64,000 nucleotides of DNA from Candidatus Aminicenantes bacterium (GTDB taxonomy: Bacteria; Acidobacteriota; Aminicenantia; Aminicenantales; Aminicenantaceae), in the NCBI GenBank assembly GCA_011772475.1, contig WVZK01000134.1:70793-134792 (forward strand). The letters are read 5' to 3'. The notes beneath the pieces were generated by a model. The model saw only the letters and a program-made list of their open reading frames with translations. It was not told the origin of the DNA and searched no databases. The translations under genes and the position numbers were made by a program. Of this stretch, positions 3,537 to 62,167 are shown in pieces; the first letter of the stretch is position 1; every line of letters begins with the position of its first letter.

Positions 3537-4739
3537 ATGTATGGCAAGATAAAGGAAGATTTGACAAAAGAAATTCAATCTATTCACGACGCAGGCCTCT
3601 ATAAATCGGAAAGAATCATAATGACTCCTCAGGGAGCAGAGATCGAAGTTAAAGGCGGTAAAGAAGTCCTGAATTTCTGCGCCAATAACTATTTGGGCCT
3701 ATCGAGCCACCCCAAAGTCATCGAGGCAGCCCATAAGACTCTTGATGAATGGGGTTACGGCATGAGCTCAGTTCGTTTTATCTGCGGGACTCAAGACATT
3801 CATAAGATTTTAGAGCAGAAGATATCTGCGTTTCTCCAGACAGATGATACCATCCTCTATGCTGCCTGTTTTGACGCCAACGGAGGAGCCTTTGAACCTC
3901 TTATAGGAGCAGAAGACGCCATAATAACCGATCAGCTTAACCATGCATCTATTATTGATGGCATCCGCCTCTGTAAAGCCCAAAGACTCATCTATAAGCA
4001 TGCTGACATGGCCGACCTTGAAGAGAAACTAAAGGAAACTCAGGGAGCCCGTTACAGGATGATAGCCACTGACGGTGTGTTTTCCATGGATGGCGATATT
4101 GCCAAGCTTGATGCGATCTGTGAGCTGGCAGATAAATACGATGCCATGGTCATGATTGACGACGCTCATTCAACAGGATTTATGGGCAAAAAAGGAAGAG
4201 GAACTCCTGAATATAGAGGGGTGATGGGCAGAATAGACATCATCACAGGGACTCTTGGAAAAGCCCTCGGAGGTGCCTCAGGCGGATTTATTTCCGGAAG
4301 AAAAGAGCTAATAGAACTTTACAGACAGCGCTCAAGGCCCTATCTTTTTAGCAATACTTTAGCCCCTGCTGTTGTTGGTGCATCTATTGCCGTCTTTAAT
4401 CTTCTCTCTGAAACAACCGAACTAAGGGATAAGCTGGAAGAAAACACAAAGTACTTCCGGGAAAAAATGACAGAAGCCGGATTTGATATAACACCCGGAG
4501 CCCATCCTATTGTTCCTATAATGCTCGGTAAATTTGAGAATGATGCCAAGCTTTCTCAAGATATGGCCCATGATCTCCTTGAAGAGGGAATCTATGTCAT
4601 AGGATTCTACTATCCGGTGGTCCCCAGAGGCCAAGCCAGGATAAGAGTTCAGCTCTCGGCAGCTCATGAAAGACATCACCTGGATAAAGCCATAGAAGCT
4701 TTCACCAAAGTCGGAAAGAAATATAACGTTATTCCCTAG
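3537..4739 (+). CDS. kbl: 2-amino-3-ketobutyrate CoA ligase (glycine C-acetyltransferase), a PLP-dependent alpha-oxoamine synthase
   Basis: [14 protein letters not shown] and the PLP-lysine region [17 protein letters not shown] upstream. About 400 aa, typical of Kbl. Confidence 0.85.
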
Positions 4740-4836: not shown

Positions 4837-4940
4837 TTGGGTCTTATTCTCTTTTTTTAGGCAAAAAACAAAACCTGACTCCAACAAAATTTTTTAAAAG
4901 TAGCCTGTCCCCTTTTTTGTCCCTTTTTTTGCCGTTTTTA

Positions 4941-8746: not shown

Positions 8747-9211
8747 TTGCTGGTTTTTCCTATAAATGCGTATACAAGAATGTATCACGATATGATGAAA
8801 AAATCAATATATGTAACCTATTTATTTTTTTATACAACATATAGTATTATCTCCAACTATTAAATATATATCCTATCGTATTAGTAAGAATAAGTCAACG
8901 ATTTCCTTTAGGTCGTAAGCATTCGACTTTCTATTATAAGGATGAGAGAACAGCGACTAGCCCCCTTTTTGAAAAGGAAATTGGGCCTAAGAAAATGGGG
9001 CCTGGCCCTAATGGCATGTCCTCATTCCATCAGAAAAAGGGCCCGTCCTCTTTTCTCCCGATGATCTCATCTGGCATTTTCTGTTGACTTGTAAAGGTCA
9101 AATGCCCAATATTTAGGTTATATGTATCCTGCATTATTCAAGAAGACTATCGATACCTATATTTTGTTAATAATTCAGGATAAATAATAGACGGGAAAAA
9201 AGGAGAAAAAA

Positions 9212-14206: not shown

Positions 14207-14227
14207 AAATCTTTTTATTAGTTATTA

Positions 14228-14449
14228 GGGTCAAGTCTTGTTTTTTGCCTGCCTTGTCAAAAAAAACTCGTTCAAACGCATAAAAATTTCATTATAAGAA
14301 TGAAAATAATGCAGATATCTTCCTTCTTTTGGATGAGGTCTTAATTAGTTCCCCTGGCCCTTTATTAAAAGAGCGGCATCGCCACCAACCTAAGCTCTTA
14401 TTCTGAATTGGGTCTGGATCAAAGAAAGCAAAAAACAAGAACTGACCCC
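14228..14449. repeat. MITE-like element A: about 222 bp bounded by 22-bp inverted repeats GGGTCAAGTCTTGTTTTTTGCC / GCAAAAAACAAGAACTGACCCC
   Basis: Terminal inverted repeats are visible in the sequence. Related copies lie at 30531-30605, 25266-25344 and 4839-4882. Confidence 0.5.
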
Positions 14450-14454
14450 TTAGT

Positions 14455-29734: not shown

Positions 29735-29836
29735 AGGTGGGTTTGATAAATCAAACCCCTACATTGATTATAAATCATTGATTGTATTTTAAAAGGTGGA
29801 TTTAATAAATTAAACCCCTACGATAAATCAAGCGCC
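29735..29836. repeat. Hairpin repeat family 1 copies (GGTGGGTTTGATAAATCAAACCCCTAC plus variant GGTGGATTTAATAAATTAAACCCCTAC) in a tandem-gene intergenic region
   Basis: Palindromic arms GGGTTTGAT/ATCAAACCC, with a second divergent copy 50 bp away. Confidence 0.6.
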
Positions 29837-29844
29837 TAAATCTT

Positions 29845-30530: not shown

Positions 30531-30605
30531 GGTCAGACCTTGCTTTTTGCCTGTCTGTAAAAATTGAGTTTGTATGGGCAAAAGCAAAAAACAAGACCTG
30601 ACCCC
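30531..30605. repeat. Short MITE-like element B: GGTCAGACCTTGCTTTTTGCC ... GGGCAAAAGCAAAAAACAAGACCTGACCCC
   Basis: A 75-bp element with terminal inverted repeats that match element A's ends. Confidence 0.5.
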
Positions 30606-30660
30606 ATAAACCTTTGCTTTTCTGTTGCGTATCAAATAATGTAAAATATTAACACGGAAG

Positions 30661-33166: not shown

Positions 33167-33364
33167 CGTAGGATTTGATTTATCAAACCCACCTATGATT
33201 GATTTATTTGTAGGGGTTTGATTTATCAAACCTACCTATGATTGATTTATTTGTAGGGGTTTGATTTATCAAACCTACCGTTTTATTCGGAAATTTGGGA
33301 AGAGGGGCTTGATGAATCAAGCCCCTACAATGAATCAAGCCCCTACGGTGAATCAAGCCCACCC
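33167..33364. repeat. Tandem array of hairpin repeat family 1: two full 44-bp units (33193-33236, 33237-33279) plus a partial, then three GAATCAAGCCCCTAC-type units
   Basis: TATGATTGATTTATTTGTAGGGGTTTGATTTATCAAACCTACC repeated with period 44, followed by GAGGGGCTTGATGAATCAAGCCCCTACAATGAATCAAGCCCCTACGGTGAATCAAGCCC. Confidence 0.7.
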
Positions 33365-33394: not shown

Positions 33395-34606
33395 TTAAAG
33401 ATTTGGTCCTATCTTTTTTTTGACAAACTCAAAGGCTTTGTTCAAAGCCTGGTTAAGATTCTCTTTTTCCTCTCCAGCGACTTCAACCAAAGAAGGCCTC
33501 CCTCCTCCTTTGCCTTTTATCAAGGGAGATACCAGAGGAACAAGTTCTCTCATGTCTATGTCGAGATTCTCAGAGCAGGCCAGAATAAGATGTCCCCTTT
33601 CTTCTCCCTCCTGGCCAAAGAGAACAACAAAATCCCCCTTTTTTATAATGTTCAGTGCCAGGTATCTCGCCTCTTCTAGTGTTTTATCAACAAAGACTTC
33701 TTTTATTATCTTTTCCTTCGCATCTTGAGTGATTTCCTGAGCTTCATACTGGGCAATTTTTTCCTGCAGCTTCTTCCCCGCTCTTCTTTGTGACTTTAAA
33801 TCTGAAGAAAGTTTCTCAACAGTATTGAGAACCTCCTCCTCACTTACAGTGAACCTGGTGGAAAGCTCACGAACAATTCTGCTTTTCCGCAAATAGTCTT
33901 CTAATGCCCTTGCGCCGCAGATGAATTCAAACCGAATATTGTTCCTTATTCTTTCCAGCCTTAGAATTTTTATCAAGCCGATTTCACCTGTCCTGCGGAC
34001 ATGCGTCCCTCCACAGGCAGAAAAATCAAAATCCGAGACCTCCACGACTCGAATGAGCCCCTTTTTTTTAGGCGGTCTTCTCAGCGGAACACTCTCGATC
34101 TTTTCTTCAGGAACGAAGTAGCATTTTATCTCTCTGTCCTCATACACAATCTCATTAGCGCGCCTCTCTATCTGCTCAATCTCGTCTTCTGAAATCTTCC
34201 TTAAGTCCATCTCTAAGGTAGAAAAAGATTCTCCCAGATGGAAAGCGAGAGTCTCTGCCGCCAAGAGCTCATGAAAACTCTGGGAAAGAATATGCTGACC
34301 AGAGTGCTGCTGCATATGGTCGAAACGAGTCTTCCAGTCAATTTTTCCCGCCACTTTGCCGGCAGGCATGTCCTCAGCAACAAGGTGGATAATCCTTGCC
34401 TCATCTTCTAATACCTTTAGCACTTCCACTTCATTTATCGATCCTTTATCACTAGGCTGCCCCCCCGATTCTGGATAAAAGCAGGTTTGGTCAAGGATTA
34501 AGGCAGGTTTTTTCTCCCATATCATTTTGTCTGCGACTCGAGCCTCAAACTCGACCTGGTAAGGATTTTCAAGATACAGCCGTTTTGTTTCCTGTTTCAT
34601 TTTCAA
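33395..34606 (-). CDS. alaX: Alanyl-tRNA editing protein, AlaX-L type (AlaRS/ThrRS second additional domain)
   Basis: HSGQHIL (HxxxH) and CGGTHV (CxxxH) zinc motifs of the AlaX editing domain. About 400 aa with a C-terminal GGGRP DHHA1-like region. Confidence 0.7.
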   Translation of the reverse strand: MKMKQETKRLYLENPYQVEFEARVADKMIWEKKPALILDQTCFYPESGGQPSDKGSINEVEVLKVLEDEARIIHLVAEDMPAGKVAGKIDWKTRFDHMQQHSGQHILSQSFHELLAAETLAFHLGESFSTLEMDLRKISEDEIEQIERRANEIVYEDREIKCYFVPEEKIESVPLRRPPKKKGLIRVVEVSDFDFSACGGTHVRRTGEIGLIKILRLERIRNNIRFEFICGARALEDYLRKSRIVRELSTRFTVSEEEVLNTVEKLSSDLKSQRRAGKKLQEKIAQYEAQEITQDAKEKIIKEVFVDKTLEEARYLALNIIKKGDFVVLFGQEGEERGHLILACSENLDIDMRELVPLVSPLIKGKGGGRPSLVEVAGEEKENLNQALNKAFEFVKKKIGPNL

Positions 34607-36599: not shown

Positions 36600-36749
36600 G
36601 TATCAATAAATAGCATTGAGATAAATTATTAATTATCGTTTCGTTCAATAAGACTAGATTATATCTCTTTACTTAAATATACCTTAATATACTTTTCGTT
36701 ACTTTTATACCAGTTATGTTTGTTCTTTGCTGTTCACAGAGTTAAGCTT

Positions 36750-36783
36750 TAATGAATCAAATCCCTACAAATAAATCCTCTAC
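36750..36783. repeat. Degenerate hairpin repeat family 1 copy (AATGAATCAAATCCCTACAAATAAATCCTCTACA)
   Basis: Shares the ATCAAA(C/T)CCCTAC core. Lies at the 3' end of the nfnB-like gene. Confidence 0.35.
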
Positions 36784-45298: not shown

Positions 45299-45382
45299 GG
45301 TAGGAAATGGTAGGAAATGGGGCCAGGCCCCATTTTTCAGGCCCCAATTTTTTGTAGGAAATGGGGCCTGGCCCCATTTTTT
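45299..45382. repeat. Two copies of the GC-clamp palindrome GTAGGAAATGGGGCC(A/T)GGCCCCATTTTT (hairpin family 2), each followed by T-runs
   Basis: AAATGGGGCCAGGCCCCATTT is a perfect palindrome. A second copy has a T at the centre. A related partial lies at 8993-9008. Confidence 0.55.
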
Positions 45383-45401: not shown

Positions 45402-45516
45402 GTAGGGATGTGATTTATCAAACCCACCTTTCAAAATATAATCAATAACTTAAAATTAATATAGGGGCTTGATTTATCAAATCCATATTATTGTAGGGGC
45501 TTGATTCATCAAGCCC
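45402..45516. repeat. Three hairpin family 1 copies (GTAGGGATGTGATTTATCAAACCCACC; TAGGGGCTTGATTTATCAAATCC; GTAGGGGCTTGATTCATCAAGCCC)
   Basis: Each has the same GTAGGGG..TTGAT..ATCAA..CCC architecture, with T/C and A/G variants in the stem. Confidence 0.6.
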
Positions 45517-45546
45517 GAAGGAAAAAACTAGCCTTCCCCCTTCTTT

Positions 45547-49045: not shown

Positions 49046-49196
49046 TTTGCTGTCTTTTTAAGATGATACTCCTTTATAAAAAAAATCCCTTCTAAAATCA
49101 ACTCCTCCATAACATTTGTAAGAATCTCCATTTCTCTAATTATTATATTCACTTGCTTGGCGAAGGCTGTATGGCGAAAAAACCGTGAGAAAGGAA

Positions 49197-49345
49197 AGCT
49201 CGGGCTAGTGGCTTCAAAAACACACAACTTTTGCCCCAGCGAGGCAAAAGTTGTTCGGTTTCAGGCTTCGCTCTCCTCTCCTGCAGAGAGGAACCATGCC
49301 CGCTCAGCCTTCAAACGGTTTTTTCACCCACTAGCCCTCGCTAAA
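49197..49345. other. Candidate structured element or small RNA: about 150 nt closed by a perfect 10-bp stem GGGCTAGTGG/CCACTAGCCC, with internal hairpins (AACTTTTGCC-CCAGCGAG-GGCAAAAGTT; TCCTCTC-CTGCA-GAGAGGA)
   Basis: Nested palindromes seen directly in the sequence. Lies in the divergent promoter region between the MBL hydrolase and the GHMP kinase. Confidence 0.3.
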
Positions 49346-49443
49346 CAAGAATATTTGACTCGCCGGGACAAAAGCAACGTGTTTTTGATCCATATAGCCT
49401 GAGCCATTGACAGTTTTCAGCTCAGTTTGTATAAAAAGAAGTC

Positions 49444-57451: not shown

Positions 57452-57495
57452 ATTTAATTCATAACAAAGGGGACAGGCTACTTTTTTAAAAATGT

Positions 57496-57534
57496 GCGGG
57501 TTTCATAAATCAAACCCCTACGAAATTTATGAAA
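57496..57534. repeat. Hairpin repeat family 1 copy (GCGGGTTTCATAAATCAAACCCCTACGAAATTTATGAAA)
   Basis: GGGTTT(C/G)AT AA ATCAAACCCCTAC in a convergent intergenic region, flanked by GGGGACAGGC / GCCTGTCCCC inverted repeats. Confidence 0.55.
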
Positions 57535-57577
57535 AAGAAGCCTGTCCCCTTTTATTTTCTGGCTGTAAATTTAATTC

Positions 57578-62026: not shown

Positions 62027-62167
62027 GATATGAGGGGCTTCTTGAATCATTTCAAGTAAATAATGTTCAGGATCCGAGTAAGGATCAGAACTAGAAAGTG
62101 CTAATATCCTTTAAAAAAAGAGGATATAAAGAGGCCTTGGAAGATGCATGCTATTTAGAAATTAAAG

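Follow-up and report, generated by a model that had tools for sequence, protein, structure and literature searches.

The DNA analysed here (the window) is a stretch of 64,000 nt from a Candidatus Aminicenantes metagenome-assembled genome (MAG; GCA_011772475.1, contig WVZK01000134.1, positions 70,793-134,792, forward strand). Its intergenic regions carry a dispersed family of short hairpin-forming repeats, which are probably GTAG-tagged repetitive extragenic palindromic (REP) elements of the ‘canonical long REP’ type, with a GGG/CCC stem foot, tied to REP-associated tyrosine transposases (RAYT, also called TnpA-REP) resembling those of subclass 2.4. An earlier note on this DNA had described a dispersed intergenic family with copies at gene 3' ends, and both points hold. 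The half-motif GTAGGGGYTTGAT, searched with ≤2 mismatches, has 14 matches in the window against 2.52 expected (0/100 shuffles reach 14), and every unit lies between long open reading frames (ORFs) with clear Pfam identities, adjoining gene 3' ends. The total comes to 11 full units, of which 4 have decayed and do not fold, and 4 half-units, at five intergenic sites (29736-29839, 33168-33364, 36742-36783, 45402-45519 and 57495-57521). A further relic proposed at 62029-62053 needs an indel plus mismatches and is indistinguishable from chance. The units are listed below, with DNA folding energies scored as z relative to shuffles.

29736..29762, - strand: full REP unit, T variant, GTAGGGGTTTGATTTATCAAACCCACC; perfect 9-bp stem; DNA fold -7.3 kcal/mol, z -4.3
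29795..29821, - strand: full REP unit, TTTA/TAAA stem variant, GTAGGGGTTTAATTTATTAAATCCACC; a second compensated pair beside the loop and one G.T at the foot; weak fold, -2.7 kcal/mol
29822..29839, - strand: 18-nt half-unit, GTAG degenerate, TTAGGCGCTTGATTTATC
33168..33193, + strand: full REP unit, T variant, foot with a 1-nt deletion, GTAGGATTTGATTTATCAAACCCACC; unit 1 of the 43-nt array
33210..33236, + strand: full REP unit, T variant; array unit 2; DNA fold -5.5 kcal/mol, z -3.7
33253..33279, + strand: full REP unit, T variant, followed by GTTTTAT; array unit 3; the sole terminator-like REP
33302..33328, - strand: full REP unit, C variant, GTAGGGGCTTGATTCATCAAGCCCCTC; 11-bp stem; DNA fold -11.1 kcal/mol, z -7.1
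33329..33346, - strand: 18-nt half-unit, GTAGGGGCTTGATTCATT
33347..33364, - strand: 18-nt half-unit, degenerate, GGGTGGGCTTGATTCACC
36742..36768, - strand: decayed REP unit, GTAGGGATTTGATTCATTAAAGCTTAA; folding lost
36769..36783, - strand: degenerate half-unit, GTAGAGGATTTATTT
45402..45428, + strand: decayed REP unit, T type, GTAGGGATGTGATTTATCAAACCCACC; fold equal to shuffles at best
45461..45487, + strand: decayed REP unit, left arm C-type and right arm A-type, ATAGGGGCTTGATTTATCAAATCCATA
45493..45519, + strand: full REP unit, C variant, GTAGGGGCTTGATTCATCAAGCCCGAA; antisense to both flanking genes
57495..57521, - strand: full REP unit, T variant, one stem mismatch, GTAGGGGTTTGATTTATGAAACCCGCA

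A full unit consists of a GTAG head, a 9-bp stem (GGG-YTTG-AT / AT-CAAR-CCC), a loop (TT or TC when read on the GTAG strand) and, in most cases, a CACC(T) tail; the half-unit of 18 nt comprises the GTAG, the left arm and the loop. GTAG stands directly at the stem foot in 9 of the 11 full window units, the rest having ATAG, or GTAG with a damaged foot. Intact units have perfect stems of 8-11 bp and a formal loop of 2 nt (which folds as a 4-nt loop), and as single-stranded DNA they fold at -5.5 to -11.1 kcal/mol (z -3.7 to -7.1). The repeat had been described as a 28-nt palindrome; no copy in the window is a perfect 28-nt ‘double-foot’ palindrome, and the units are asymmetric, with a GTAG head as opposed to a CCCACC, CCTACC or CCCGNN tail. 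Among 93 units from Aminicenantes-type loci, the CACC tail is present in 41 and a single one lies inside an ORF.

At 33168-33279, the + strand carries an array of three units of the form GTAGG(G)GTTTGATTTATCAAACC(C/T)ACC, the second and third each preceded by the 16-nt spacer TATGATTGATTTATTT. The tandem array of 2.5 copies reported earlier is therefore present, with a period of 43 rather than 44 nt (Tandem Repeats Finder, TRF, 33174-33279: 98% matches). Directly after it, on the - strand, stands the full hairpin GTAGGGGCTTGATTCATCAAGCCCC, preceded by the half-units GTAGGGGCTTGATTCATT and GGGTGGGCTTGATTCACC (TRF, 33312-33360: period 18, 2.7 copies, 93% matches); what had been read as three ‘GAATCAAGCCCCTAC units’ is this one hairpin with its two 18-nt half-units. 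A clustered regularly interspaced short palindromic repeat (CRISPR) array was considered and rejected, since the spacers of the 43-nt array are identical (98% matches), there are 2.5 copies, the flanking genes are housekeeping genes and no cas gene is present. Rfam, at its gathering threshold, and a tRNA scan gave no match in the whole window.

The unit at 57495..57521 is enclosed by the arms of a 28-nt inverted repeat (57466-57493 / 57525-57552, 89% complementary), and the arrangement at 57466-57552 is what insertion of the REP into a bidirectional-terminator loop, or into a small element with terminal inverted repeats, would look like. The arms represent a motif, AAAGGGGACAGGCTAC(T)n / GTAGCCTGTCCCC, that has a further copy at 4876-4918 and recurs beside REPs in Aminicenantes-type contigs (L005, L038, L059).

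Hairpin structure across the wider family

A scan of 596 Gb (one genome per species) with the core GTAGGGGYTTGATNNATCAARCC recovered at least 117 stretches from at least ~74 assemblies with ~25 phylum-level labels, where ~1 chance match was estimated; on these matches, a species-specific REP was rejected. The labels among the matches listed include Aminicenantes, Omnitrophota, Elusimicrobia, Chloroflexi, Planctomycetes, Patescibacteria, WOR-3, Ignavibacteria, Thermodesulfobacteriota and others, together with one match labelled Altiarchaeota and one from a cultured Formosimonas. Carriage by phages was also rejected, the motif being in only 7 IMG/VR contigs. Across the family the unit can be generalised as GTAG-GGG-N4-AT-TY-AT-N4'-CCC, and over 20 of its stem variants are fully compensated. 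Its GGG...CCC foot, in which columns 5-7 pair with columns 22-24 (G-C in 100%, 100% and 86%), is close to invariant and is present in the intact window units, and the loop on the GTAG strand is TT, TC or TA in 220/241, which shows strand specificity. In many of these genomes the hairpin is paired with a second one that shares its constant parts and has a different stem (e.g., GGGTCGGAT-AA-ATCCGACCCCTAC), and tight inverted doublets occur in other phyla (e.g., GTAGGGGCTTGAT..ATCAAGCCC-gc-GGGTCGGAT..ATCCGACCCCTAC). Runs of half-units recur in L017, L022, L034, L039, L069, L108, L126 and L127.

The earlier note had taken the stem variants as covariation that preserves the hairpin and had proposed covariation statistics on all copies, and the counts over the wider family agree with it. 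All five variable stem positions are Watson-Crick paired in 66 of 93 non-ascertained matches to GTAGGG-N5-AT-NN-AT-N5-CC, compared with a chance of 1/1024, and the same matches add 19 stem types. In 76 distinct sequences, 96.5% of cells are paired (shuffles, 81%; slid controls, ≤48%), and double-sided stem changes number 117, versus 32.7 in shuffles, with 0/500 shuffles as high. Counts of T/C by A/G are strongly associated (T-A, 71; T.G, 4; C.A, 4; C-G, 92; Fisher p = 8e-38). The hairpin structure is clearly conserved across the wider family. Within the window, T-A and C-G pairs do both occur, but the Aminicenantes lineage has only two fixed types (CTTG 36, TTTG 29, others 2 in the Aminicenantes-type loci), the very situation that had been named as one that would refute the claim; the structural argument thus draws on the family in other phyla and on one orthologous site at which T has been swapped for C (see below), not on the window alone. 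We rejected cross-phylum identity as proof of horizontal transfer: the four variable stem pairs allow no more than 256 combinations, and one genome can hold many different stems (as L118 does), so that YTTG is to some extent bound to recur.

The stem variation also bears on the idea that the units are operator-like sites for a dimeric double-stranded-DNA-binding protein such as a regulator or a nucleoid protein. Their core is nearly palindromic (TTGAT-NN-ATCAA) and intergenic, in line with such sites, yet stem bases vary freely as long as pairing is kept, and more than 20 stem types are the signature of a hairpin rather than of base-specific duplex recognition. The units also lack symmetry and are specific to one strand in their GTAG head, T-rich loop and CACC tail, and the copies lie at 3' ends and not at promoters; we regard this explanation as highly improbable.

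A position 3' of genes could instead mean that the hairpins are primarily RNA elements, terminators or 3'-end stabilisers, selected as RNA and spread incidentally. Every window copy is near gene 3' ends, many tails read CCCACCTTT, 33257-33276 was flagged as terminator-like, and the RNA fold of the array region is far better than that of shuffles (z -8.0 for the + strand, -5.3 for the - strand); for REPs elsewhere, effects on mRNA stability and on termination have been reported (PMC3733652, PMC8266576). However, orientation with respect to the upstream gene is only weakly biased in the Aminicenantes-type loci (38 sense vs 27 antisense), the units of the cluster at 45402-45519 run antisense to the genes on either side, and a simple terminator pattern fits 1/11 units, with a regional count (14) below the shuffle mean (17.5). 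Nor is the G.T wobble preferred over the C.A mismatch (4 vs 4), so there is no sign of RNA-specific selection, and the invariant GTAG, the flanking of RAYT genes and the in-frame copies inside them (see below) would be left unexplained. A primary identity as RNA elements is thus improbable, and a terminator in particular finds no support in the simple terminator scan or the orientation statistics. Since insertions survive mostly just 3' of genes, a secondary action of the hairpins on transcript 3' ends is possible, but unsupported. Functions in RNA stability or as protein sites may exist as secondary roles and are not needed.

RAYT genes beside the hairpins

In other genomes, small ORFs beside the hairpins encode HUH and Tyr motifs and match Pfam Y1_Tnp, with NCBIfam REP_Tyr_transpos as the best model; the sole PDB match of these hairpin-adjacent RAYTs is TnpA-REP of E. 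coli (4ER8). They have more than 4,800 homologues, many of them named RayT. The clade is one of small proteins (142-165 aa); its best 120 homologues show 57-71% identity, and some of them are named for Endomicrobiales, Omnitrophota, Caldatribacteriota and Nitrospinota. In contigs for six RAYTs the layout is that of a REPtron, with a + GTAGGGG hairpin ≤~60 nt from the start and a - hairpin at the stop; RAYT genes bracketed by + (5') and - (3') hairpins were found at L104, L118, L119/L120, L121, L123/L124 and L029. The Omnitrophota MAG that contains L118 also supplied six REP loci, and L118 itself has 14 GTAG-tagged hairpins of this class, with 11 distinct stems, in 20 kb. The T-type hairpin of the window occurs, as an exact match, beside or inside a RAYT gene at four loci (L156, L179, L189 and L208).

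Across 80 metagenome RAYT loci, RAYT clade and hairpin apex class co-vary: the RAYTs nearest to that of L104 always occur with GAT-TY-ATC-apex hairpins, and remoter RAYTs with other apex classes. A hairpin lies inside the RAYT gene, just after the HUH motif, in 58/80 of these loci, and the frame is open in 68/69. Window-type hairpins within the RAYT genes of L023, L098 and L189 are translated as GLINQTPT or GFDKSNPY. In-frame REP insertion in RAYT genes was rejected as a novelty, as it is already published for subclass 2.4 (PMC6006769); together with the GGG/CCC foot and ‘double-foot’ palindromes it is among the hallmarks given there, which makes this a system that is already known.

Some further features of the RAYT loci were observed. 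In-gene REP hairpins or inverted REP pairs (L136-L215; L023, 4698-5198; L098, 318-960; L189, 250-897) are translated as the peptides VGAGLKPAPT, RGGSRTAPT and GLINQTPT, and the L098 RAYT appears frameshifted near 780. ORF calls often run into the flanking hairpins, which yields N-terminal VGARFIEP and C-terminal GSDKSDPYK peptides. The L156 RAYT locus (3898-4350) has three copies of GTAGGGGTCGGATTTATCCGACCC at 56-nt spacing on its 5' side and three of GTAGGGGTTTGATTTATCAAACCC at 32-nt spacing on its 3' side, all head-to-tail; these runs of identical REPs indicate that tandem amplification occurs at a REPtron too.

If the TnpA-REP systems of E. coli, Stenotrophomonas and Marinomonas are a guide, the hairpin and GTAG would be bound on single-stranded DNA by a trans-acting RAYT; for an L104-like RAYT, GTAGGGGYTTGATTYATCAARCCCACCT would be a single-stranded substrate. 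The enzyme would cleave at CT or CA beside the hairpin and rejoin the strands, allowing copies to spread (PMC8266576), and the conserved CACCT tail would supply the CT. The 18-nt half-unit and the 43-nt arrays probably arose by slippage or unequal exchange, or by aberrant cleavage and rejoining, and would then have been homogenised in each genome.

Orthologous sites in related contigs

Four syntenic contigs from relatives (L125, L126, L127 and L128) were compared with the window. The tRNA-editing-like protein encoded at 33395-34606 is 100% identical to one from a Candidatus Aminicenantes MAG (144-kb contig), whereas exact look-ups of two window ORFs matched no record, probably owing to the choice of start codon; its copies are 83-85% identical in L125-L127 and 72% identical in L128. 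Units number 1.4-5.3 per 10 kb in the window and in L125-L127, and L128 has none. The content of three intergenic sites is as follows.

AlaX/permease (convergent): window, 257-nt array; L127, 241 nt with the same architecture
AlaX/permease: L125, 66 nt, no REP; L126, 17 nt, no REP; L128, unrelated 373-nt sequence
gltD/acetyl-CoA hydrolase: window, 1 decayed unit; L125, 3 units; L126, 4 units; L127, 5 units; L128, 0 units
PK_C/radical-SAM: window, 2 T-type hairpins and 1 half-unit; L127, 1 T-type hairpin and 3 half-units
PK_C/radical-SAM: L126, 1 C-type hairpin and 1 half-unit; L125, half-unit remnant only; L128, none

The empty and filled sites, the shifts in copy number and the T-to-C swap show that the repeat family is dynamic, with gain, loss, local multiplication and variant switching. 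Between AlaX and the permease, L127 has a half-unit, a C-type hairpin and then three T-type units at 43-nt spacing, as in the window. The three units of the 43-nt array are nearly identical in each genome; their spacers are the same within one genome and different between the window (33168-33279) and L127 (5275-5383), reading AAATAAATCAATCATAGG and AAGCAGATCAATCAAAGG, respectively, which suggests concerted evolution or independent re-amplification.

Several observations weigh against the reading of these repeats as REPs tied to RAYTs. No RAYT or Y1 transposase is encoded in the window according to a hidden Markov model (HMM) search, in agreement with the earlier note; a search elsewhere, as it had proposed, showed RAYT genes bracketed by hairpins of this class in other genomes, but ~317 kb of Aminicenantes-type loci yielded none by HMM search or by tblastx with RAYT loci. 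No Aminicenantes-named protein was among the best 120 matches of two RAYT homologue searches, one of them seeded with a RAYT whose internal REP is 91% identical to a window copy over 44 nt. With no RAYT found in these Aminicenantes data, present-day mobilisation in trans is unproven for the lineage. Decay has left several window copies unable to fold. The two stem types of the lineage are two master sequences, and plain copying would give the same pattern. In the Aminicenantes-type loci, neighbouring units are arranged head-to-tail in 34 pairs, with GTAG outside in 7 and GTAG inside in 0, and the sole inverted junction in the window is at 33253-33328. This layout is atypical for systems built of REP doublets forming hairpins (REPINs) or bacterial interspersed mosaic elements (BIMEs), and the Aminicenantes units are neither; tandem duplication alone could suffice. 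Of the earlier suggestion that the repeats are REP/BIME-like and under selection for the hairpin, the REP part is upheld by the GTAG with its stem-loop, the cross-phylum covariation and the flanking of RAYT genes, and the orientation is not BIME-like.

Much of this could also be understood if the repeats were orphan REPs, descended from a RAYT/REP system whose RAYT has been lost in the lineage, with changes that are now local; hairpin slippage, unequal recombination and gene conversion would account for the runs of 18-nt half-units and for the 43-nt arrays. The lack of a RAYT in the window and the Aminicenantes-type loci, the dominance of head-to-tail arrays (34 vs 7), array spacers that are uniform within a genome and different between genomes at an orthologous site, as in concerted evolution, the restriction to two stem types and the many decayed copies are all in keeping with this. 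On the other hand, a RAYT is typically single-copy, and the search covered a small fraction of any Aminicenantes genome. The contrast between an empty and a filled site (17 nt in L126, 257 nt in the window) and the dispersal to many unrelated sites need a transposition-like step at some time, and perfect, strongly folding copies persist. We consider orphan REPs unlikely.

Other repeats were observed in the window. A second repeated hairpin family, AAATGGGGCC(A/T)GGCCCCATTTTT, occurs at 45310-45337, 45354-45381 and 8988-9015, and also in L001 and L090; these hairpins have an A run on one side and a T run on the other, resembling bidirectional terminators, and two copies stand 44 nt apart by the REP cluster. 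The intergenic repeat GCAAAAAACAAGACCTGACCCC is found at 4861-4892, 14221-14256, 14406-14452 and 30562-30615, in both orientations and with 79-86% identity. An intergenic element of ~230 nt with long internal inverted repeats (49160-49385) is 72% identical to 11351-11567 of L128, a non-orthologous place that corresponds to the AlaX/permease gap; it is a candidate miniature inverted-repeat transposable element (MITE) or structured RNA, and its only Rfam match is insignificant (E 0.78).

Comparison with known REP systems

The repeat family belongs to a well-known class and is no new kind of element. GTAG-tagged REPs are defined by a terminal unpaired GTAG, a stem of 6-13 bp and a loop of 2-3 nt that is often TY (Di Nocera, De Gregorio & Rocco 2013, PMC3733652); the search rules of Quentin 2018 (PMC6006769) ask for GT[AG]G at 0-2 nt 5' of the stem-loop, a fully paired basal stem of ≥7 nt and a loop of 2-5 nt. 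The family resembles the REPs of PMC3733652 in its GTAG, in stem-loop size and in subfamilies that arise through complementary stem changes, as well as in lying 3' of genes, where the neighbouring ORFs are unidirectional or convergent, in its tandem clusters that include flanking DNA and in its REPtrons. It differs in that the stem sequence of the window was not found among terms in the searchable literature, and in its host, Aminicenantes not being among the example host phyla in the abstract of PMC3733652.

Greater detail is shared with the REPs of TnpA-REP (TnpA-Y1) subclass 2.4 (Quentin, Siguier, Chandler & Fichant 2018, PMC6006769). These have a stem whose foot is a run of three G-C pairs, ‘double-foot’ GTAG...CTAC variants (which we found in other phyla), a distribution scattered over many phyla, and REPs in frame within tnpA-REP between the HuH and Tyr motifs; the assignment of our RAYTs to this subclass rests on the hallmarks described in PMC6006769 only. 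Unlike that subclass, the window's own lineage has no known RAYT. REPINs (Bertels & Rainey 2011, PMC3116915) are similarly non-autonomous, built of REP hairpins and tied to a single-copy RAYT, and the inverted doublets in other phyla recall them, whereas the Aminicenantes-type units are not inverted pairs (34 head-to-tail vs 7 inverted). With REP/BIME and TnpA-REP of E. coli (4ER8; Messing 2012, Corneloup 2021, PMC8266576) the family shares a GTAG guide plus hairpin, recognised there on single-stranded DNA, and a CT dinucleotide 3' of the stem (here in the CACCT tail). The E. coli stems are bulged, longer and GC-rich, and orientation alternates in BIMEs; the Aminicenantes units, in contrast, have perfect, short, AT-rich stems and form same-orientation tandem arrays with periods of 43 and 18 nt.

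These results carry REP/RAYT biology, on which nearly all work has dealt with Proteobacteria and Cyanobacteria, into Aminicenantes and many candidate phyla. GTAG-GGG-N4-AT-TY-AT-N4'-CCC provides a compact annotation rule, which also explains the spurious ORF peptides VGARFIEP, GLINQTPT and GSDKSDPYK, and the empty and filled orthologous sites together with the half-unit arrays offer material on how REPs multiply without REPIN organisation. A bolder scenario is speculative, and we hold it doubtful as a whole: the REP class and its small RAYT clade would have spread horizontally through ~25 phyla, mostly of uncultured sediment and groundwater bacteria, and the Aminicenantes system would be RAYT-independent, its head-to-tail arrays growing by 18-nt half-units (possibly footprints of cleavage and rejoining) and evolving in concert. 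If true, horizontal spread of REP and RAYT would contradict the prevailing picture of vertical, lineage-specific REPIN-RAYT pairs.

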